Made by a program: the position numbers and the translations under genes
In this document: piece by piece, positions 8,863-29,895 of the stretch
Position numbering within the stretch: position 1 is the stretch's first letter
How the letters are laid out: each line of letters starts with the position of its first letter
From: Actinomycetes bacterium
Lineage (GTDB): Bacteria; Actinomycetota; Acidimicrobiia; Acidimicrobiales; Bog-793
Length of the DNA stretch: 49,880 bases
Direction of reading: 5' to 3'
Assembly: GCA_021796455.1 (NCBI GenBank)
Contig: JAKACA010000003.1
Coordinates: 1 to 49,880 of the forward strand
Notes under the pieces: generated by a model
Told to the model about the DNA's origin: nothing
What the model saw: the letters and a program-made list of their open reading frames with translations, nothing else
The model's database searches: none

Positions 8863-9942
8863 CTAGGCGCCTGCTGCTTCGACCACGGACGGCTGGCCGC
8901 TCGCGCTCACCTCGCCCCCGTCGGAGATCACGATCGCCTGGAAGCTGACCTCGGCGGGGAGCGACCCCAAGTCCGGCGCGAAGTCGACCTTGTAGGTGTA
9001 GGTCCCTTTTGAGCACGGAATGTTCGCAGGGAGAGCGCCCTTCGCGATCGGGTCACTAGGGCCGCTCCAGGAATAGCCGAAGCTGCACTGAGAGGCATTC
9101 GTCACAGCGATCGAGAGGGTGACCGATCCACCCGTTGCCGGCAGGCTGGAAGGAGTCGCCGTAAAGCTCGCAGCCGTCGGCGCAAGGCCCCTCACATACA
9201 CGACCGCCTCGGCACTCGATGCGCCGCCGCCGAGCCCGGCCACCGAGAGAGCGAAGTACGTGGCCCTGCTTTGCCCACCGCTGACAGGGGGAAGTGCGAC
9301 GACTTTCGCCACCTTCCCGTCGGCACAGGGAAGCGAGACCGGGAGGCCGGCTATCTCGGGACTGGCGGAGATGACACAGCGAAGCGCCCTCAGCACTCTG
9401 GCGGTAAGTGTCACCGCTCCGCCCGATGGTGGCAGGGAGCTCGGGCTCGAGGAGAACGATGCGACGGCTGGGGGCCTCGGAAGCACGTGGACGTAAAGGA
9501 CCCGCTCGGCATAAGCGCCATGGCCACCGCTAGCCTTCAGCCGAAGGGGTATCGAGCGCACCCCTGCCCCGGCATCGCCTGGCACCCTTACCGTGATCGC
9601 GATATGACCTTGCCGGCAGGAGAGCCTCGACGGCACGCCCGCCATCTTGACGGTGGAGGTGACCTCGCACCTGGCTGCGCCCCGGGTTCGTGCCACAAGG
9701 CGAACCTTGCCGCCGCGATAATCGAGCTGGGACGGTGTCGCGCTGAACTTGGAGATGACCGGGCGCTCGGCACTCGAGGGGCGCTCGGCACTCGAGGGAC
9801 GCTCGGCACTCGAGCGGCCCTGGGCGCCGGCTCTCGCCGGTGCTCCCGGCACAGCGACCTGCACCATGATGGCGGCGCCTGCGAGAGCCGCGGCAAGACG
9901 GCTCCAGGCACGTGATCTTGACTTCGACAAGTTTTCCTCCAC
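8863..9942 (-). CDS. Secreted protein with three ~97-aa Cys-containing Ig-like repeats
   Basis: Signal-peptide-like N-terminus; repeats begin PVISKFSATPSQL, PAVASFSSSPSSL and PTAASFTATPSSL, each with GGxVxL and two aligned Cys. Confidence 0.7.
   Translation of the reverse strand: MEENLSKSRSRAWSRLAAALAGAAIMVQVAVPGAPARAGAQGRSSAERPSSAERPSSAERPVISKFSATPSQLDYRGGKVRLVARTRGAARCEVTSTVKMAGVPSRLSCRQGHIAITVRVPGDAGAGVRSIPLRLKASGGHGAYAERVLYVHVLPRPPAVASFSSSPSSLPPSGGAVTLTARVLRALRCVISASPEIAGLPVSLPCADGKVAKVVALPPVSGGQSRATYFALSVAGLGGGASSAEAVVYVRGLAPTAASFTATPSSLPATGGSVTLSIAVTNASQCSFGYSWSGPSDPIAKGALPANIPCSKGTYTYKVDFAPDLGSLPAEVSFQAIVISDGGEVSASGQPSVVEAAGA
9761..9814 (-). repeat. In-frame 18-bp tandem repeat x3 (SSAERP)
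   Basis: gggcgctcggcactcgag x2 plus ggacgctcggcactcgag. Confidence 0.9.
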
Positions 9943-17321: not shown

Positions 17322-17347
17322 TATGCTCACTGTGAGCCCAGAGTGGT
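17322..17347 (+). promoter_or_regulatory. Putative -10 (TATGCT), palindrome GCTCAC-T-GTGAGC and motif GCCCAGAGTGGT upstream of the giant cyclase
   Basis: TATGCT 17322-17327, palindrome 17325-17337, 12-mer 17336-17347; function inferred. Confidence 0.4.
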
Positions 17348-17353
17348 CGGGTC

Positions 17354-20300
17354 GTGGCCACTTTCCTACAACCTTGGATGGGTGAACAGGTGCCTACCGA
17401 GGCGTCAAGGATCGCGATACCGGGATTTGATGTCGTAGAGGAGCTCGGCCGCGGAGCGACGACGGCGGTGTACCGCGCGGTTCGCCAAGGTCAGGACTTC
17501 GCCGTCAAGATGCAGCAGCTGAAGGGACCCGACGACCCCGCCCGGCTCTACTTCCGCCGCGAGGCGGCCATCCTTGCCGCGATCCGCCACCCCTGCCTGG
17601 GCAAGGTCTTCGAGGTGGGCGACGACGGCAGGATCTGCTATCTCGTAATGGAGCTCATCGGCGGGCGGACCCTCGGGCAGGCAATCGCAGAAGAAGGCGC
17701 CCTTCCTGAGCTTCGAGTGCTGTCGATAGCTGCCGACGTAGCTGCCGCCCTGGACGTCGCTCACCGCGTAGGGCTCGTGCATAGGGACGTCAGCCCGCGC
17801 AACGTCGTGCTCAGAGACGACGGGCGGGCCGTTCTCATCGACTTCGGCCTCGCGACGCACACCGGCACCCGCCAGCCAGAAGATGCCGTAGTCGGCACGG
17901 TGCTCTACAGCGCTCCCGAGCAGACAGGAATGGCACGCCGCCCGGTCGACAGGCGGTCCGACCTGTACTCCCTCGGCGCCGTGCTCTTCGAGTCTGTGAC
18001 GGGCCGTCCGCCATTCAGGGCGTCCGACGCCGGCGAGGTCGTCCGTATGCACGCCATGCTCACCGCTCCCGACGCGCGCTCGGTCGAGCCGAACGTCTCT
18101 GTCCAGCTTTCCCGGATCATCGCGCGGCTCCTCGCGAAAGATCCAGACGACAGGTACCAGGACGCCAGCTCGCTCCACTCGGACCTGGAGGCGCTCCGGA
18201 GCGGGAACCTCTCCGAAGATGCCCCGCTCGGCAAGTCGGTTGTCGGGCGGGCGTCGACGAGCATGACCCTCGTCGGTCGCAATGCCGAACTGGCCGCGCT
18301 GCTCGAGGTGGCCAACGACACCCGGGCCTCGAGAACCGGCGCCTCGGTCATCATCGAGTCGGAGCCCGGCGGGGGCAAGACACGCCTCGTCTCCGAACTG
18401 GCTCTGATCGCGCGCGGCAACGGGATGACCGTCATCGAGACCAACATCGGCCTCGACCATCCCGGGCCACTTGGACCACTAGCTCTGGCGCTCGGGCGTC
18501 ACCTGGCGGAGCTCGAGACCCGCGATCCCGACATGCTCGCGCACCTGCGCCGAGAGATGGGCATTGACAGAGCTGGAGCGGCGGTCTCGCTCCTCGGCTT
18601 GTCGCGCGAGCTCGACCGATTCCTCTCCGCGCCGAGCGAGCGCGGATCGGACGGCGGCTTCCACGACTTCGCGGTGATCGAGGCCGCCCACCTGGTCATG
18701 TCCGTCGCGACAGCCTCACCGGGTGGGATGCTTCTCGTTGTCGACAACGCCCACTTGGCTGACGACGCCACCCATCGCGTGCTCGCGTACCTGGCACCCG
18801 AGCTGGACCGTCTACCCCTTGTGATCGTCCTCACCGCTCGCAGTGATCCCGCGCACGGGTTCGCGCTCGGGCGACTCCGCTCCGAGATGGGCGAAGCGGT
18901 GCGGCGTAGGATCGAGCTCCCACCCCTCAGCGACGCGCAGATCGAAACCGTCCTTTCATGGCAGCTGGGTGGCGACGCCCTCGATCCGAGCCTCGCGAAC
19001 GAGATAACTATTCGCGCCAACGGCAATCCGTCCGCGGCGGTTGAGTACCTCCGGGCCGCGCTCGAGGCCGGAGTGCTGCGGCCTTATTGGGGGACGTTCT
19101 CCGTCGATGCCGAGGCGCTCGCGGGCCTCGACCTGCCCACCGACGTCCGTGGCTTGGCATTGCGCCGCCTCGACAGCCTCCGCCCTGCGACCCGCTGGCT
19201 GCTCACCGAGGCCGCCCTCGTCGGATCAAGCTTCGGTGTCGGCCTGCTGGCGACGATCACGAACTGGTCGACAGCGGACCTCTACCTTGCCCTCGGAGAG
19301 GCGGCAGGCGCTCGGGTGATCGAGCAGCAGGACAGCGACCGCTACGTGTTCCTCCATGACGGCGTACGAGATGTCCTGCTGCGTTCAATCGACAAGAAGG
19401 CGGCGAGGCGTGCCCACGAGGTGCTCGCGCGGGCGTTGCAGGAGACGGGCGAGAGCCGGCCGGAGATCGTCTACGAGATCGCGCGTCACTACGCGCTCGG
19501 TGAGGTCGAATCCGACCCGGTCCGGTCTTTTCAGGCAAACCATCGTGCCGCCCGCCTGGCGCTCGCGGCACAAGCCGACGACGACGCGCTCGAGTTCCTG
19601 GCCGCAGCCGAGGCCATCACCGTCGAGCACCGGCTCCCCGCCACGAGTGCCTTCGAGACGGACTACGGCACAGCTCTGGCCCGCAGCGGCAGGGTCGATC
19701 TTGCCCTTGGGCACTACGAGAAGGCCCTGCGCCTGGAACGAGAGCCGATAGGCCGCTCACGAATCCGCGAGCACCTCGCACATGTCTACCTTGCCCAGTC
19801 AAACGGGACGGCGAGCCTCGAGCACGCCCGCGAAGGGCTCTCAGAGCTTGGAAGATCCCTGCCGCAAAGTGGAGCCCTCCTGGCCGTCTCCACGCTCTGG
19901 CGCAGCTTGCTCGGTCTCCTGGTCGGGGTGACACGAGTCGGATTCGGGCGGGCAAAGCGTGCCAAGAGAGAAAAGCTCCGCCTCGAGTGCCGCCTCCTCG
20001 AGGTGGCCGGCGACGCGGCGGACCTGGAGCACCGTGCGATTCTCGCCGTCGGGATCGCCCTAAGAGCACTGGCGCCGGCGAACCGTCTCGGGCACTCTCG
20101 TGAGTTCGTCGGCGTCTACGCCCACCTGGGCTCGATCCTTGCCCAGGTGAGGCTCGTGGGCTTCGCCCGTGTCGTCGCGCGGCACACGACGCGGGTCGCC
20201 CAAAAGACCAACGACCAGGGGACTATCGTCCATGCAAAGCTGCTCGAGGCAATCAGCCTCGAGCTGCAGGGGTGTTCCGTCGAATCCCAGCAGCTGCTGG

Positions 20301-22747
20301 CCGAGGTGCTCCGCCACGAGGCGCGCTGGTTGCAGCCGGGAGAGTACCTAAGTGGCGTGCTCGCCGCATGCGTCGGACTGGGCCTTCGAGGCAGGGTACT
20401 CGAGCAGGTAGCGTGGGTCGAGGAGGCGACCTGGCACTCCGGCAGGGCCACGCGCCTCGACAACGGAGCAGTCAACGGGCTCGACTTCGTCGGGATCGCC
20501 ATAGCTGGTCTCCTGGAACAGCCGACGCTCGGCCTCGAGCGGATAGCGCGCGTAAACGAGCGGTTCGCCGCCGCGGAGCCATCCCGGATAGCGGTTGCCG
20601 GCTATCAGGTCGCGCTTGCAACGTTTCATTTCGGCCTGAACGAGCTGGGCCAGCCGTTCGAGGAAGCTGTCGCGCGTTTTCGGGCTCAGCGCCTCAGGCC
20701 GTGGAACTGTCCCTACAACCTCTCGTCTTTTTGGATAGTGCAGGCCCTTGCTCGGCTGTCGCAGCTGCTGAGCTGCACTGAGGAGGACCGCAGAGCATGT
20801 ATCCGCTCGGCCCGAAGAGCAGCCCGTGAGCTTCGCCTGGCATCTCGCACCCCGCTCATGCGGGCGTACTACTTCGGTGCCCGTACCGGCCTTCTCGTGG
20901 CAAAGGGTCGCTTCAAAGCGGCGCTGCGCTCGAGCTCGAGGGGACAGGCACTGCTCGTCGGCCTCGATGCTCCGGGAGCCGAGATGGCAATCCAGATGGC
21001 CCGGAGTCGTGCCCTTGACGGCGCGGGCTTCCACGAGGAGGCAGAGCGAATGGCGGTGGCGGCCGCCCGACTGTCGGAAGACCTCGGCCTCACGGCATTC
21101 GTCCGCTGGACTCAGCCTCCGGTCTCGGAACGCTCGCGAAGAAACCCTTTCGGCCACTCCCTGCGCCAGTCGATGAGCGGGGTCCCCTTGCGGGCGTCGG
21201 GGTTCCATGGGGCCGGGGGCGTCCGAGTCGCGAGCCGCGCAGCTCGTCAGCTCGAGGCCCTCCTGCAAGTGGGAGCGGCCGCAGCGCGCGTGCTCGACCC
21301 CGATGAGCTCGCTCGGCTCGCCCTCGACGAGACGGTCCGGATCCTTAGTGCCGAGCGGGCGCTCCTGTTCTTGACGAACGAGAACTCTGGCCTCGTGCGC
21401 CCGCACCTCGGGCGCGACGCCGCCGGAAACGACCTCAAGGAGCTGACCGGCTTCTCCTCGACCGTCGTCGACCGTGTCGTAGCCACCCGCGAACCGGTCG
21501 TGCTCACCGGAACTGAGGAGGGCGCTGCGCTCGGCTCGGAAAGCGCGGTGACCCACGGGCTGCGGTCGATCCTCGTCGCGCCCCTTCAGATCGAGGATCG
21601 CCTGCTCGGGGTCGTCTACCTCGACAGCAGGCTCGCGAAGGGTATCTTCACGAGAGACGACGTCGAGATCCTGAGCGCAATCACCTCGAACGTGGCGTTT
21701 GCTCTCGAGACAGCCCGGCTGGCCGAGGTGGAGATGTCGGTGGCGAGCGAGCGCCGCCAGCGCGAGGTCGCAGAGCTGCTCCGCGACTCGATGAGCGAGA
21801 TCGGCCAGAGCCTCGAGCCCCGTGGCGTTCTGCGATCGATACTGCACAACTGCGTCTCGGCGCTCAGTGCCGATGCGGGCGCCATCCTGCTCGCCGACGG
21901 TGAGCGTCTCGAGATCGCCTCGGCGGTGGGCGGCGGCGTGTCGCTCCCACCCGAGGGCTATGACCTTGCCCGGACCGATCAGCCCGAGATCGCCGAGGCC
22001 CTCCGCTCCCGCAAGCCCCTCTCTGTCGCGAGCGTCATCAGCGAGCGGAACTCACCGCTGTTCGGGCTCCTCGGGCGGGCCGGGTCGTTCATCGTCGCGC
22101 CACTTGTCGTGCGCGACCAGGCAGTCGGTGCCCTCGCGATAATCTCGCGGCGGCCCAACGCCTTCGGTCAGACTCAGACCGAGGTGGCCGCGGCTCTTGC
22201 CAACCAAGGCGTCGTCGCATACGAGAATGCACAGCTCTTCGCCCGTGTCCAGACCCTCGCGCAACGAGACGAGCTTTCTGGCGTGGCCAACCGACGGTAC
22301 TTCTTCGAGATGGCAGGGCGGAGCTTCCGGGACGCCCGCCAGGCGGGCACGCCCCTGTCGGCGATGATGCTCGACATCGACCACTTCAAAGATGTCAACG
22401 ACCGCTACGGCCACGCGTCGGGAGACGACGTGATCCGCGTCGTGGCACAGCGCGTGGCAAAGGTCATCGGGTCAGGTGACACGGTGGGTCGCTACGGCGG
22501 CGAGGAGTTTGCCCTTGTCGTGCAAGCCCCACTCGAGCAGGCGCACGCGCTCGCCGAGCGCCTGCGCCAGGCCATCAGCGAAACCCCGATCTCTACCGCC
22601 TCTGGTCCGATAGAGGTCACCGCATCGGTGGGCGTGGCCGAGATGGACGGGCGCGATCTCGACCTGGGCCGCCTCCTGCAACGGACCGATGCCGCTCTTT
22701 ACGAGGCCAAGCGGGCGGGGCGGGACCAGGTGGTCACAGCGTTTTAG
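17354..22747 (+). CDS. Ser/Thr kinase - STAND (AAA_16-like) ATPase - TPR-like - GAF - GAF - GGDEF diguanylate cyclase
   Basis: Kinase: LGRG, AVK, HRDVSPRN, DFG, APE, DLYSLG. Walker A SEPGGGKT (18359-18382), Walker B LLVVD. Two GAF-like segments (~21290-21720, ~21800-22240). DELSGVANRR, DIDHFKDVNDRYGH and GGEEF (22496-22510). Alternative start ATG 17378. Confidence 0.88.
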   Translation: MATFLQPWMGEQVPTEASRIAIPGFDVVEELGRGATTAVYRAVRQGQDFAVKMQQLKGPDDPARLYFRREAAILAAIRHPCLGKVFEVGDDGRICYLVMELIGGRTLGQAIAEEGALPELRVLSIAADVAAALDVAHRVGLVHRDVSPRNVVLRDDGRAVLIDFGLATHTGTRQPEDAVVGTVLYSAPEQTGMARRPVDRRSDLYSLGAVLFESVTGRPPFRASDAGEVVRMHAMLTAPDARSVEPNVSVQLSRIIARLLAKDPDDRYQDASSLHSDLEALRSGNLSEDAPLGKSVVGRASTSMTLVGRNAELAALLEVANDTRASRTGASVIIESEPGGGKTRLVSELALIARGNGMTVIETNIGLDHPGPLGPLALALGRHLAELETRDPDMLAHLRREMGIDRAGAAVSLLGLSRELDRFLSAPSERGSDGGFHDFAVIEAAHLVMSVATASPGGMLLVVDNAHLADDATHRVLAYLAPELDRLPLVIVLTARSDPAHGFALGRLRSEMGEAVRRRIELPPLSDAQIETVLSWQLGGDALDPSLANEITIRANGNPSAAVEYLRAALEAGVLRPYWGTFSVDAEALAGLDLPTDVRGLALRRLDSLRPATRWLLTEAALVGSSFGVGLLATITNWSTADLYLALGEAAGARVIEQQDSDRYVFLHDGVRDVLLRSIDKKAARRAHEVLARALQETGESRPEIVYEIARHYALGEVESDPVRSFQANHRAARLALAAQADDDALEFLAAAEAITVEHRLPATSAFETDYGTALARSGRVDLALGHYEKALRLEREPIGRSRIREHLAHVYLAQSNGTASLEHAREGLSELGRSLPQSGALLAVSTLWRSLLGLLVGVTRVGFGRAKRAKREKLRLECRLLEVAGDAADLEHRAILAVGIALRALAPANRLGHSREFVGVYAHLGSILAQVRLVGFARVVARHTTRVAQKTNDQGTIVHAKLLEAISLELQGCSVESQQLLAEVLRHEARWLQPGEYLSGVLAACVGLGLRGRVLEQVAWVEEATWHSGRATRLDNGAVNGLDFVGIAIAGLLEQPTLGLERIARVNERFAAAEPSRIAVAGYQVALATFHFGLNELGQPFEEAVARFRAQRLRPWNCPYNLSSFWIVQALARLSQLLSCTEEDRRACIRSARRAARELRLASRTPLMRAYYFGARTGLLVAKGRFKAALRSSSRGQALLVGLDAPGAEMAIQMARSRALDGAGFHEEAERMAVAAARLSEDLGLTAFVRWTQPPVSERSRRNPFGHSLRQSMSGVPLRASGFHGAGGVRVASRAARQLEALLQVGAAAARVLDPDELARLALDETVRILSAERALLFLTNENSGLVRPHLGRDAAGNDLKELTGFSSTVVDRVVATREPVVLTGTEEGAALGSESAVTHGLRSILVAPLQIEDRLLGVVYLDSRLAKGIFTRDDVEILSAITSNVAFALETARLAEVEMSVASERRQREVAELLRDSMSEIGQSLEPRGVLRSILHNCVSALSADAGAILLADGERLEIASAVGGGVSLPPEGYDLARTDQPEIAEALRSRKPLSVASVISERNSPLFGLLGRAGSFIVAPLVVRDQAVGALAIISRRPNAFGQTQTEVAAALANQGVVAYENAQLFARVQTLAQRDELSGVANRRYFFEMAGRSFRDARQAGTPLSAMMLDIDHFKDVNDRYGHASGDDVIRVVAQRVAKVIGSGDTVGRYGGEEFALVVQAPLEQAHALAERLRQAISETPISTASGPIEVTASVGVAEMDGRDLDLGRLLQRTDAALYEAKRAGRDQVVTAF

Positions 22748-22819: not shown

Positions 22820-23626
22820 GTGCCGATAGTTGGAAACGTGCAACCAGGCATCGATGTCGGTGGCGTCGTGGACAGCCTCTCAGATGCAGCCAACTGCGAA
22901 GATCCCCGAGCCGAGCCGCTCCATGTCGTGGTGCCCGGATGGAGCACCGGCGAGAGCTCGAGCGATCACACGGCCCGGCTGCTCGGACTATCGGCCGATG
23001 AGGTCACGCGGCTCTCACAGGTCGATCTGCATCGAGCAGGCTGGGCCGAGGTAGTCCGCATTGCCGTCACCGACCCGCTCACCCGCCTTCCCAACCGCGC
23101 TCTTCTCCATGACCGTTTGAGACAGGCGATCGCTCGCCTTGCTCACGAGCCGACCGAGCTGGCCGTCTTGTTCATCGACGTGGACCGTTTCAAGCTCGTG
23201 AACGACACGCTCGGACACGGCGCCGGAGACGACCTCCTCGTCGCCATAGCCAACCGGCTCTCGCAGACGCTGCGGATGACGGACACGATCGCCCGCTTCG
23301 GAGGAGACGAGTTCGTCGTGCTGGCAGAGGACGTAAGCGACGCGGCAACGGTCCTAGCTCTCGGTCAACGCCTCATCGAAGCTGTCGCGGAGCCGCTCGA
23401 GATCGCAAGTCACACCATGACCCCGAGTATCAGTGTGGGCATCACGATCGCCTTCCGGTCCTATGAGGAGCCCGCCGAGCTGATCCACCTCGCCGACCTG
23501 GCGATGTACCAAGCCAAGGATGCCGGCGGCGGTCGCTGCATGCTGGCCGAGCCGCGGGCCGACTCTCCTCATCGAAGCCAAGATGCCGCCCTTCGGCAGT
23601 GCGATCCCTGGAGCGCCGCAGGATGA
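22820..23626 (+). CDS. GGDEF diguanylate cyclase with a short unrecognised N-terminus
   Basis: TDPLTRLPNR, LFIDVDRFKLVNDTLGHGAGD, I-site RMTD (23273-23284), GGDEF (23300-23314), ADLAMYQAK. Confidence 0.88.
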   Translation: MPIVGNVQPGIDVGGVVDSLSDAANCEDPRAEPLHVVVPGWSTGESSSDHTARLLGLSADEVTRLSQVDLHRAGWAEVVRIAVTDPLTRLPNRALLHDRLRQAIARLAHEPTELAVLFIDVDRFKLVNDTLGHGAGDDLLVAIANRLSQTLRMTDTIARFGGDEFVVLAEDVSDAATVLALGQRLIEAVAEPLEIASHTMTPSISVGITIAFRSYEEPAELIHLADLAMYQAKDAGGGRCMLAEPRADSPHRSQDAALRQCDPWSAAG

Positions 23627-29177: not shown

Positions 29178-29208
29178 GCTCAGAGTAGTAACCTCGAACG
29201 CGTAAAGT
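29178..29208 (+). promoter_or_regulatory. Putative bldD promoter with motif GCTCAGAGTAGT and -10 TAAAGT
   Basis: 12-mer at 29178-29189; TAACCT at 29189-29194; TAAAGT at 29203-29208. Confidence 0.4.
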
Positions 29209-29310: not shown

Positions 29311-29895
29311 ATGCGCAGTGCTGTAGTTAGGATCGCAAACAACGAGCTGACCGACGAGGACGTGGCAGGCTACGCACAAGCCGTCGGCCTCCGCCTGCGC
29401 GCGGTCCGCCGGCAGAAGCGGCTCTCCTTGCAGGCAGTCGAGCGCGCGTCCGCAGAGGAGTTCAAAGCCTCGGTGCTCGGCGCCTACGAGAGAGGCGAGA
29501 GGACCATCTCCGTGCCGAGGCTGCAGCGCCTGGCGCAGATCTACTCCGTGCCGGTCGACCAGCTCCTACCTGCTGACATGTCGCAGCCGCTCGGCAGGGC
29601 TGGTACCGCCTCGGGCCCGTCGCGCTCTGGTGCTGCCGGAGAACGACCGGTGAGGAAGATCACTATCGACCTCGTTCGCCTCAACGAAGTCACAGGCCCA
29701 GAACGCGATCTGCTTCGCCATTTCCTTGCCTCTGTACAGGTGCAGCGCCAGGACTTCAATGGCAAGGTGATCACTATAAGAGAAGCCGACCTTCGCGTGA
29801 TGGCGTCGATGTTCGGCCGTAGCGTCGAGGCGCTCGTCAACCGCCTCGAGGAGCTCAGCCTGATCCACCACGCCACCAGGAACGGGCAGAGCTGA
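29311..29895 (+). CDS. bldD: BldD-family XRE transcriptional regulator with c-di-GMP-binding C-terminal domain
   Basis: YAQAVGLRLRAVRRQKRLSLQAVE...GAYERGERTISVPRLQRLAQIYSVPVDQLLP and KITIDL...QRQDFNGKVITIREADLR align with Streptomyces BldD as I recall it (KLVLDL...QRGDYNGKVLSIRQDDLR); AAGGGG RBS before ATG 29311. Confidence 0.88.
   Translation: MRSAVVRIANNELTDEDVAGYAQAVGLRLRAVRRQKRLSLQAVERASAEEFKASVLGAYERGERTISVPRLQRLAQIYSVPVDQLLPADMSQPLGRAGTASGPSRSGAAGERPVRKITIDLVRLNEVTGPERDLLRHFLASVQVQRQDFNGKVITIREADLRVMASMFGRSVEALVNRLEELSLIHHATRNGQS

Follow-up and report, generated by a model that had tools for sequence, protein, structure and literature searches.

A giant kinase–STAND–GAF–GGDEF protein of Acidimicrobiales as a likely sensor diguanylate cyclase with three altered control motifs

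What is the role of the giant protein encoded at positions 17354..22747 (plus strand) of contig JAKACA010000003.1, from a bacterium of the order Acidimicrobiales, which joins a Hanks-type protein kinase, a STAND ATPase, a long helical region, two GAF domains and a GGDEF domain in a single chain? The gene lies in the 49,880-nucleotide stretch of DNA analyzed here (the window), and its product unites three major bacterial means of signaling: Ser/Thr phosphorylation, oligomerization switched by nucleotide, and cyclic di-GMP (c-di-GMP). Based on sequence comparison and structure modeling, its likeliest function is that of a cytoplasmic sensor diguanylate cyclase. The architecture is common, not unique, and has been catalogued earlier, and the absence of the inhibitory I-site is by itself unremarkable. 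What is new here, as read from the alignment and tree of its homologs, is a coordinated, phylogenetically ordered change of three control motifs.

A first-pass annotation, made from the letters alone, had proposed the order Ser/Thr kinase, STAND ATPase, tetratricopeptide repeat (TPR)-like region, two GAF domains and GGDEF. This order, together with the quoted motifs, was confirmed by Pfam, by the motif positions and by AlphaFold2 and Foldseek. The frame is open throughout and encodes 1797 amino acids if translation starts at 17354, from which all residues are counted here. Pfam searches identified Pkinase at residues 26-270 (PF00069; E 1.9e-41, 142.7 bits against a cut-off of 31.7), AAA_16 at 306-492 (E 3.2e-13, 50.9 bits against 32.6), GAF in two stretches, the best at 1314-1452 (E 5e-26), and GGDEF at 1636-1792 (PF00990; E 4.2e-42, 144.1 bits against 23.8), the last also scoring 158.8 bits with TIGR00254 (cut-off 37.4). 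The TPR models of Pfam stayed below their cut-offs (TPR_1, 15.7 vs 27.8 bits; TPR_7, 14.5 vs 27.9), leaving a faint stretch at 772-798. NCBIfam gave PknB-type kinase and GGDEF domain matches, with no equivalog reaching its cut-off; the TOMM kinase/cyclase fusion model (TIGR03903) scored 194.6 bits, under its cut-off of 705.75. All the motifs noticed earlier stand where they had been placed, namely HRDVSPRN at residue 143, SEPGGGKT at 336, LLVVD at 460, GSGD at 1706 and GGEEF at 1715, to which we add FAVKM, containing the β3 Lys, at 49, DFG at 163 and APE at 187.

In window coordinates, all on the plus strand, the PknB-like Hanks-type kinase domain extends over 17429..18208 (residues 26-285; match to PknB in the PDB, E 5e-42), with the catalytic loop HRDVSPRN at 17780-17803. 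The STAND nucleotide-binding oligomerization domain (NOD), consisting of a nucleotide-binding domain (NBD), a helical domain (HD) and a winged-helix domain (WHD), follows at 18269..19357 (residues ~306-668; Pfam AAA_16, AlphaFold2 and Foldseek), and carries the Walker A motif SEPGGGKT at 18359-18382 and the Walker B motif LLVVD-N at 18731-18748. Next come an all-helical TPR-like solenoid, the presumed sensor arm (19358..21103, residues ~669-1250; AlphaFold2 and Foldseek), and a Ser/Arg-rich linker that is predicted to be disordered (21104..21253, residues ~1251-1300; predicted local distance difference test, pLDDT, below 50). The C-terminal part comprises GAF1 (21293..21709, residues ~1314-1452; Pfam and AlphaFold2), GAF2 (21818..22168, residues ~1489-1605; the second Pfam GAF stretch, AlphaFold2 and Foldseek) and the GGDEF domain (22259..22729; Pfam and TIGR00254), in which the I-site position GSGD lies at 22469-22480 and GGEEF at 22496-22510. 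Neither a signal peptide nor a transmembrane segment is apparent in the sequence, on which no predictor was run.

Plain sequence searches of the NOD-TPR region against the PDB returned no matches, and a fold search was used instead. With 49 homologs as input, AlphaFold2 modeled residues 296-1300 at a pLDDT of 83.7 and a predicted TM-score of 0.77; the model shows an alpha/beta NBD, a helical domain, a winged helix, about 30 helices that make up some 580 residues of repeats, and the disordered linker. Foldseek placed the STAND-TPR protein PH0952 first among PDB structures (6mfv, E 1.9e-9), followed by the MalT NOD (8bob, E 6e-6), Cdc6/ORC and many TPR solenoids (TTC7B, APC/C, IFT-A). The question of whether the middle region would model as STAND plus TPR, on which the first-pass annotation had staked its reading, was thus answered in the affirmative.

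For the C-terminal 502 residues, the AlphaFold2 model (pLDDT 86.9) shows a GAF domain, a 50-residue helix (1434-1483), the second GAF domain, a 32-residue helix (1606-1637) and GGDEF, and the Foldseek matches were IsPadC (5llw, E 1.8e-25), Dcsbis (4zmu) and the tandem GAFs of PDE2A and PDE5. The tandem GAF/coiled-coil arrangement resembles that of constitutively dimeric sensor cyclases (5llw, 4zmu), so that the GGDEF domain need not dimerize by way of STAND oligomerization, as had been suggested initially.

The GGDEF domain is of the PleD type, and its active site is intact in sequence. RYGGEEF at 1713-1719 is a GG[D/E]EF motif with the preceding Arg, GGEEF is found in 118 of 118 full-length homologs, and the metal and GTP residues of the pattern DxD...FK..ND..GH..GD, which read MMLDIDHFKDVNDRYGHASGDD in this protein, fall in alignment columns that are invariant or nearly so; we take these residues to play the substrate- and metal-binding roles of their counterparts in PleD. 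The position that reads the guanine is Asp, not the Ser of Hypr enzymes. Upstream, GSGD at 1706-1709 stands where an RxxD I-site would be expected, exactly five residues ahead of GGEEF, but lacks the Arg. Loss of the I-site is not unusual among cyclases in general, RxxD being common but not a defining feature. Allosteric product inhibition was probably lost together with this Arg. The earlier observation of a missing I-site Arg is accordingly real, but it is a trait of the derived clade described below and not remarkable alone.

More than 100 full-length proteins sharing this set of Pfam domains came up in the homology search; where annotated at all, they are called simply 'diguanylate cyclase'. 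Thirty-four of them, 62-82% identical to the window protein, come from metagenome-assembled genomes of Acidimicrobiales; two are about 50% identical; and approximately 80, at 36-40% identity, belong mostly to Micromonosporaceae (Actinoplanes, Planosporangium, Spirilliplanes and others), with one from Solirubrobacteraceae. Every one of the 10 species sampled from the window's genus has an orthologue, as do 20 of the 92 genomes of the family (8 of 29 genera). When 151 genomes were sampled evenly across the order, the window's own was the only one with an orthologue. The sequence itself was found in mine-drainage and sediment metagenomes.

The other matches within the order, at about 30% identity, carry different outputs on the same Pkinase-AAA_16-TPR scaffold. 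These scaffold relatives, proteins of 1493-2167 amino acids from other Acidimicrobiales genomes (L034, L035, L036 and L037), end in GAF-PAS-GGDEF-EAL-REC, PAS-HisKA-HATPase-REC-Hpt, GAF-GAF-PAS-HisKA-HATPase-REC or a class III cyclase. The protein thus belongs to a modular family of giant kinase-STAND signaling proteins with swappable outputs, and the previous generalization that kinase-AAA-GAF proteins usually end in a histidine kinase was too narrow, given that GGDEF-EAL-REC, HisKA-HATPase-REC(-Hpt), class III cyclase and SpoIIE outputs occur too.

To compare the motifs, we aligned 118 full-length homologs, comprising 82 of the Micromonosporaceae type, 2 intermediates (P0038 and P0039) and 34 derived sequences including that of the window. 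GGEEF, DFG, HRD, the β3 Lys and the αC Glu are essentially invariant throughout. Three control motifs differ between the groups. The Micromonosporaceae-type proteins have the catalytic loop HRDVKPDN, a Walker A motif of the form GxxGxGK[ST], in nearly all cases a Walker B motif hhhhDD, and mostly an RxxD I-site. The two intermediates combine HRD[IV]KPRN with SEPGGGRT or SEAGGGKS, hhhhDG and RAGD. In the derived clade, the loop is HRDV[A/S/G]PRN, Walker A is mostly S[E/D]PGGG[K/R]T, Walker B is hhhhDN in 33 of 34 members and DS in one, and the I-site position is GxxD, its Arg being absent from all 34 sequences and kept in both intermediates.

The intermediates come from the same Acidimicrobiales family, P0039 also sharing the synteny, and a FastTree phylogeny places the two as sisters to the 34 derived sequences, with support of 1.0 at both nodes. 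On this tree, the losses of the I-site Arg, of the catalytic-loop Lys and of the second acidic residue of Walker B map to the same branch. Two off-switches, the STAND reset and the I-site feedback, thus seem to have been lost from this lineage. The family amounts to a natural experiment, with a canonical clade, two intermediates and a derived clade in which three control motifs are changed; it offers a way to see what STAND reset and I-site feedback do to the output of c-di-GMP, and it bears on whether an Arg at +4 can replace the catalytic-loop Lys and on how such loops evolve.

Conservation is unevenly distributed along the protein. Within the derived clade, identity is 0.78 for the kinase and for GGDEF and reaches 0.88 for GAF1, the most conserved domain (0.63 between clades). 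Among the folded parts, conservation is weakest in the TPR region (0.59) and the NBD (0.62), and the linker at residues 1251-1300 is the least conserved segment of all (0.44 within the clade, 0.18 between clades). The overall pattern is one of purifying selection on all catalytic domains.

In the kinase domain, the family conserves LGRGATTAV, FAVK52, E70, HRD145, N150, DFG163 and SAPE, and thereby the G-loop, β3 Lys, αC Glu, HRD, Asn, DFG and APE, the catalytic-loop Lys alone being replaced. The loop reads HRDVSPRN, not HRDxKxxN, and the Lys is absent from 34 of 34 derived-clade members (Ala in 21, Ser in 10, Gly in 3), while an Arg at +4 is fixed in 36 of 36 clade members. The Ser at the usual Lys position had been noticed before, but the potentially compensating Arg had been overlooked. 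A small residue at +2 followed by Arg at +4 reproduces the A-x-R pattern of tyrosine kinases: tyrosine kinases are classically told apart from Ser/Thr kinases by having HRDLAARN as opposed to HRDLKPEN, and the Arg of the AAR/AxR motif contacts the substrate hydroxyl and has a role in the catalytic loop (PMC4771162). The P+1 loop, GTVLYSAPE in the window protein and GTxxYSAPE in the family, is nevertheless of the Ser/Thr type with the conserved GT, not the PxxWxAPE of tyrosine kinases, and the best profile and PDB matches of the domain are Ser/Thr kinases. We read the change as a relocation of the catalytic charge from Lys(+2) to Arg(+4) in a kinase that is still Ser/Thr-like because its P+1 loop remains GTxxYSAPE.

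A bolder proposal, which we consider improbable, is that the derived kinase phosphorylates tyrosine or has dual specificity and that in the same lineage a STAND cyclase that could be reset and was inhibited by its product became a latch through loss of the Walker B catalytic residue and of the I-site Arg. If true, the relocation from Lys to Arg would repeat the difference between the tyrosine kinases of animals and Ser/Thr kinases, with the HRD[IV]KPRN intermediates giving the order of events. The 3.6-Mb genome of the window encodes 5 Hanks kinases; of the 4 others, 3 have HRDxKPxN and the fourth, C110 (a 314-amino-acid frame), has the degenerate loop HRDVTLDN.

In the NOD, Walker A (SEPGGGKT) has Ser in place of the first Gly and retains the Lys and Thr, and Walker B (LLVVD-N) has lost the second acidic residue. 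The Walker A Gly and Lys, the first Walker B Asp, the sensor-1 Arg, the GxP motif and the WHD His are conserved, TAR496, GNP558-560 and FLH668D at a level of at least 90%; the last three are assigned their roles, with the WHD His contacting ADP, by analogy with MalT and Apaf-1. Nine of the 36 clade members have Arg in place of the Walker A Lys, among them P0025, P0027-P0031, P0033 and P0038, at the site that matches 18359-18382. The second acidic residue of Walker B is the usual catalytic residue for hydrolysis, and the Lys to Arg substitution in Walker A is a standard laboratory means of abolishing P-loop function. ATP hydrolysis, and hence STAND reset, is probably slow or absent in the derived clade because DN replaces DD and because Arg is tolerated in Walker A. 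Of the oligomerization switch envisaged by the first-pass annotation, the NOD-TPR fold therefore stands, whereas a switch driven by the ATPase has become less certain, since the enzyme looks hydrolysis-impaired in this clade. Hydrolysis is the step that returns STAND proteins to rest (PMC4381067).

Taken together, we favor, with a probability of roughly 60%, a soluble multi-input sensor diguanylate cyclase, in which a GAF/coiled-coil dimer gates the GGDEF domain directly, control by the NOD-TPR module and the kinase is exerted from above this step, and reset and feedback are weakened. Under such a mechanism, the tandem GAF module would form a parallel dimer and set the helix register that positions the two GGDEF half-sites, and a ligand or partner at the highly conserved GAF1 would directly gate c-di-GMP synthesis. 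Binding of an inducer by the repeats would cause the NOD to open and would drive nucleotide-dependent self-association, which in turn would bring the kinase domains together for trans-autophosphorylation and cluster or release cyclase dimers. In the derived clade, the sensor, once on, would be expected to stay on longer, unthrottled by its product. The c-di-GMP made would enter a common pool to which about 19 GGDEF proteins contribute, and for which the syntenic BldD homolog described below is a likely reader.

Several observations weigh against this interpretation. No solved relative of the GAF domains was detectable by sequence, and the fold matches (phytochrome, PDE2A/5) name no ligand; the structure models are monomers and thus silent on oligomers. 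The Lys to Arg change in Walker A recurs in at least four separate lineages, such that the nucleotide cycle may be dispensable and the NOD a mere scaffold, and loss of the catalytic-loop Lys is compatible with a pseudokinase. The BldD-like_C domain occurs in 85 of the 92 family genomes compared to 20 of 92 for the cyclase, which makes the link between them positional, not specific. Finally, literature searches found no experimental study of the kinase-STAND-GGDEF architecture in any member, in agreement with the earlier statement that none was known.

The same sequence features can be arranged into other explanations. The protein could be a GAF-regulated cyclase whose kinase and STAND ATPase are dead, the N-terminal part serving for docking or localization only. 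Replacement of the catalytic-loop Lys by Ala, Ser or Gly, varying freely among small residues, would fit such decay, as would the Walker B DN in 33 of 34 sequences (DS in one), the recurrent Walker A Lys to Arg change, the status of NBD and TPR as the least conserved folded parts, and the match of tandem GAF-GGDEF, by itself, to complete functional sensor cyclases. Yet the kinase is as conserved within the clade as GGDEF and keeps every other catalytic residue, the +4 Arg, fixed in 36 of 36, argues for compensation over decay, and the NOD retains its P-loop glycines, the first Walker B Asp, the sensor-1 Arg, GxP and the WHD His. We regard a relic scaffold as unlikely, though it is the foremost of the alternatives. 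Placing the kinase first, in the manner of PknK, with phosphorylation as the main STAND output and the cyclase switched not by GAF ligands but by autophosphorylation in cis or trans, for instance in the linker 1251-1300, seems a weaker proposition again. The kinase does sit N-terminally, in the usual, canonical position of a STAND effector (PMC6468293, PMC4381067), each of the only 5 Hanks kinases in the genome probably has a distinct role, and the disordered linker between the TPR region and GAF1 is rich in Ser and Arg. That linker is, however, the least conserved segment, the exceptional conservation of GAF1 points to a direct sensory role for it, and there is no FHA, PP2C or obvious substrate gene among the conserved neighbors.

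By far the least probable, in our view, is an anti-phage role, which had been raised as a possibility at the outset. An Avs- or NLR-like STAND sensor might flood the cell with c-di-GMP or phosphorylate targets upon infection; defense systems often include STAND NTPases equipped with repeat sensors, and PADLOC and NCBIfam reported kinase-domain matches to the PD-T4-6, MADS6 and PglW models. The PADLOC matches are, however, confined to the generic kinase domain (residues ~20-320), and those in NCBIfam are far below the cut-offs. The gene also occupies a fixed position among housekeeping genes (pntAB, GH18, rpsT, lepA, hrcA, dnaJ, rsmE) in six genera, is found in all 10 species sampled from the genus, has a phylogeny that fits vertical inheritance, and is flanked by no mobile-element or defense genes; the five neighborhoods inspected were housekeeping or unrelated in content.

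The sensor cyclase that we favor can be set beside several known systems. Like PknK of M. tuberculosis, the window protein has an N-terminal PknB-like kinase, an AAA_16 NOD (MalT-like in PknK) and helical repeats, and is soluble; PknK is not known to have a GAF or GGDEF output, and the window protein differs from it by the added tandem-GAF diguanylate cyclase and by the altered catalytic loop and Walker B of its clade. Ser/Thr kinases such as PknK constitute a bacterial STAND subfamily, of which PknK is the archetypal kinase (PMC4381067, PMC6468293). PH0952 of Pyrococcus horikoshii (6mfv) and MalT of E. coli (8bob) share the NBD-HD-WHD followed by helical repeats (TPR/SUPR), and their double-autoinhibition model, with an ADP-closed resting state, opening by an inducer and multimerization, would by analogy be applicable here. 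In contrast to the window protein, their effectors bind DNA, identity is 11-15%, and it is the window protein that has no second acidic residue in Walker B.

At the output end, IsPadC (5llw) and Dcsbis/PA2771 (4zmu) have a comparable layout of GAF (or PAS-GAF-PHY), long helix and GGDEF, but theirs is a bilin photoreceptor or a single GAF domain, with no kinase or STAND module upstream. PleD and WspR are 33-35% identical over the GGDEF domain and share the GGEEF active site and substrate-binding residues, differing in their RxxD I-site where the window protein has GSGD. Other kinase fusions, which fall outside this orthologous group and are known only from catalogues of domains or from expression or transposon experiments, are built on the same modular scaffold with interchangeable outputs: a Clostridium thermocellum protein of 1826 amino acids with a kinase, 6 TPRs and GGDEF, listed in 2005 (PMC1262709), the cyanobacterial HstK-type 'dual kinases' (PK...GAF-HisK; PMC2176072) and Leptospira LIC12324 (PK-AAA_16-GAF-SpoIIE; PMC5100919).

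The genomic neighborhood of the cyclase is a fixed Acidimicrobiales locus with the order pntAB, GH18, the giant cyclase gene, rpsT, lepA, hrcA, dnaJ, rsmE, a BldD-like gene and hemW. No conserved operon partners were found in Micromonosporaceae, where the neighbors differ between genomes, and the Acidimicrobiales show positional synteny only. The BldD-like regulator (29311..29895, plus strand), with a helix-turn-helix domain, a BldD-like_C domain (PF21179, E 8.3e-17) and the motif RQD-x8-READ, is encoded 6.6 kb downstream of the cyclase. In each of the 10 orthologue genomes that have the pair on a single contig, the BldD-like gene shares the strand of the cyclase and follows it at a distance of 6.6-9.3 kb. 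The regulator is a candidate c-di-GMP receptor and likely reads the c-di-GMP of the cyclase, which is probably one of about 19 sources feeding a BldD-type regulator in these mine-drainage Acidimicrobiales. A specific co-dependence of the two was considered and dropped, given the contrast between the 85 of 92 genomes with BldD-like_C and the patchy cyclase. BldD-like_C is near-universal in this Acidimicrobiales family, although the organisms are not known to sporulate.

Directly downstream of the cyclase, at 22820..23626 on the plus strand, lies a second GGDEF gene of 268 amino acids, with RMTD (RxxD) and GGDEF, one of the 19 GGDEF matches in the genome. It is a shortened form without a sensor domain, found in the window genome and its closest relative; other species of the genus have a PAS-PAS-PAS-GGDEF protein of about 580 amino acids in the same spot.

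The beginning of the cyclase gene can be refined by comparison. In the upstream nucleotide alignment, four orthologues from the same genus carry an in-frame TAG in place of codon 12 of the longer frame (CAG, 17387-17389), and the GTG at 17390 is kept in all same-genus and three sister-genus orthologues aligned; in the most divergent one (G174/L018), the start lies further downstream. Because of this TAG and the conserved GTG, the true start is most likely GTG 17390 (VPTEAS...), giving a coding sequence of 17390..22747 on the plus strand and a kinase-STAND-TPR-GAF-GAF-GGDEF protein of 1785 amino acids, 12 codons shorter than the 1797 given originally for the otherwise intact, open frame. The segment 17354-17389 is then probably a conserved 5' leader rather than coding sequence.

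The promoter-proximal region and leader together span 17322..17389 (plus strand; alignment of same-genus orthologues). A conserved TATGCT box resembling a -10 element at 17322-17327 is followed by GCCCAnnGTGGTC, a predicted hairpin and then CTTTCCTACAACCTTGGATGGGTGAA, all conserved at the nucleotide level, with GGGTGA, similar to a Shine-Dalgarno sequence, within CTTTCCTACAACCTTGGATGGGTGAA. RNAalifold predicted two hairpins in the leader, one of them enclosing this GGGTGA and the GTG start; among the aligned orthologues, it found no compensatory changes backing them. An Rfam search of the leader gave no match, and a riboswitch or other known RNA was dropped from consideration on these two grounds. 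Sampled words of the sequence were absent from the metatranscriptomes of the source study, in which the transcription start could thus not be mapped.

A 12-bp similarity, GCYCAGAGTRGT, is found upstream of both the cyclase (17336-17347) and bldD (29178-29189). We abandoned a shared BldD-type operator when the common core shrank to about AGTrGT across orthologues. Each gene instead has its own upstream element that is conserved in the genus, GCCCAnnGTGGTC for the cyclase and GACCGCTsAGAGTAGTAAC...GCGTTACGTGGT for bldD. The strongly conserved bldD element carries the inverted repeat GTAAC-N9-GTTAC.

Elsewhere in the window, a gene at 8863-9942 on the minus strand encodes a 359-amino-acid protein that has no Pfam match and is predicted to be secreted, with three internal repeats, each roughly 100 residues long, and, near its N-terminus, a tandem SAERPS repeat. 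In related genomes, a GAF-GGDEF gene is found near this position instead, beside pntA.

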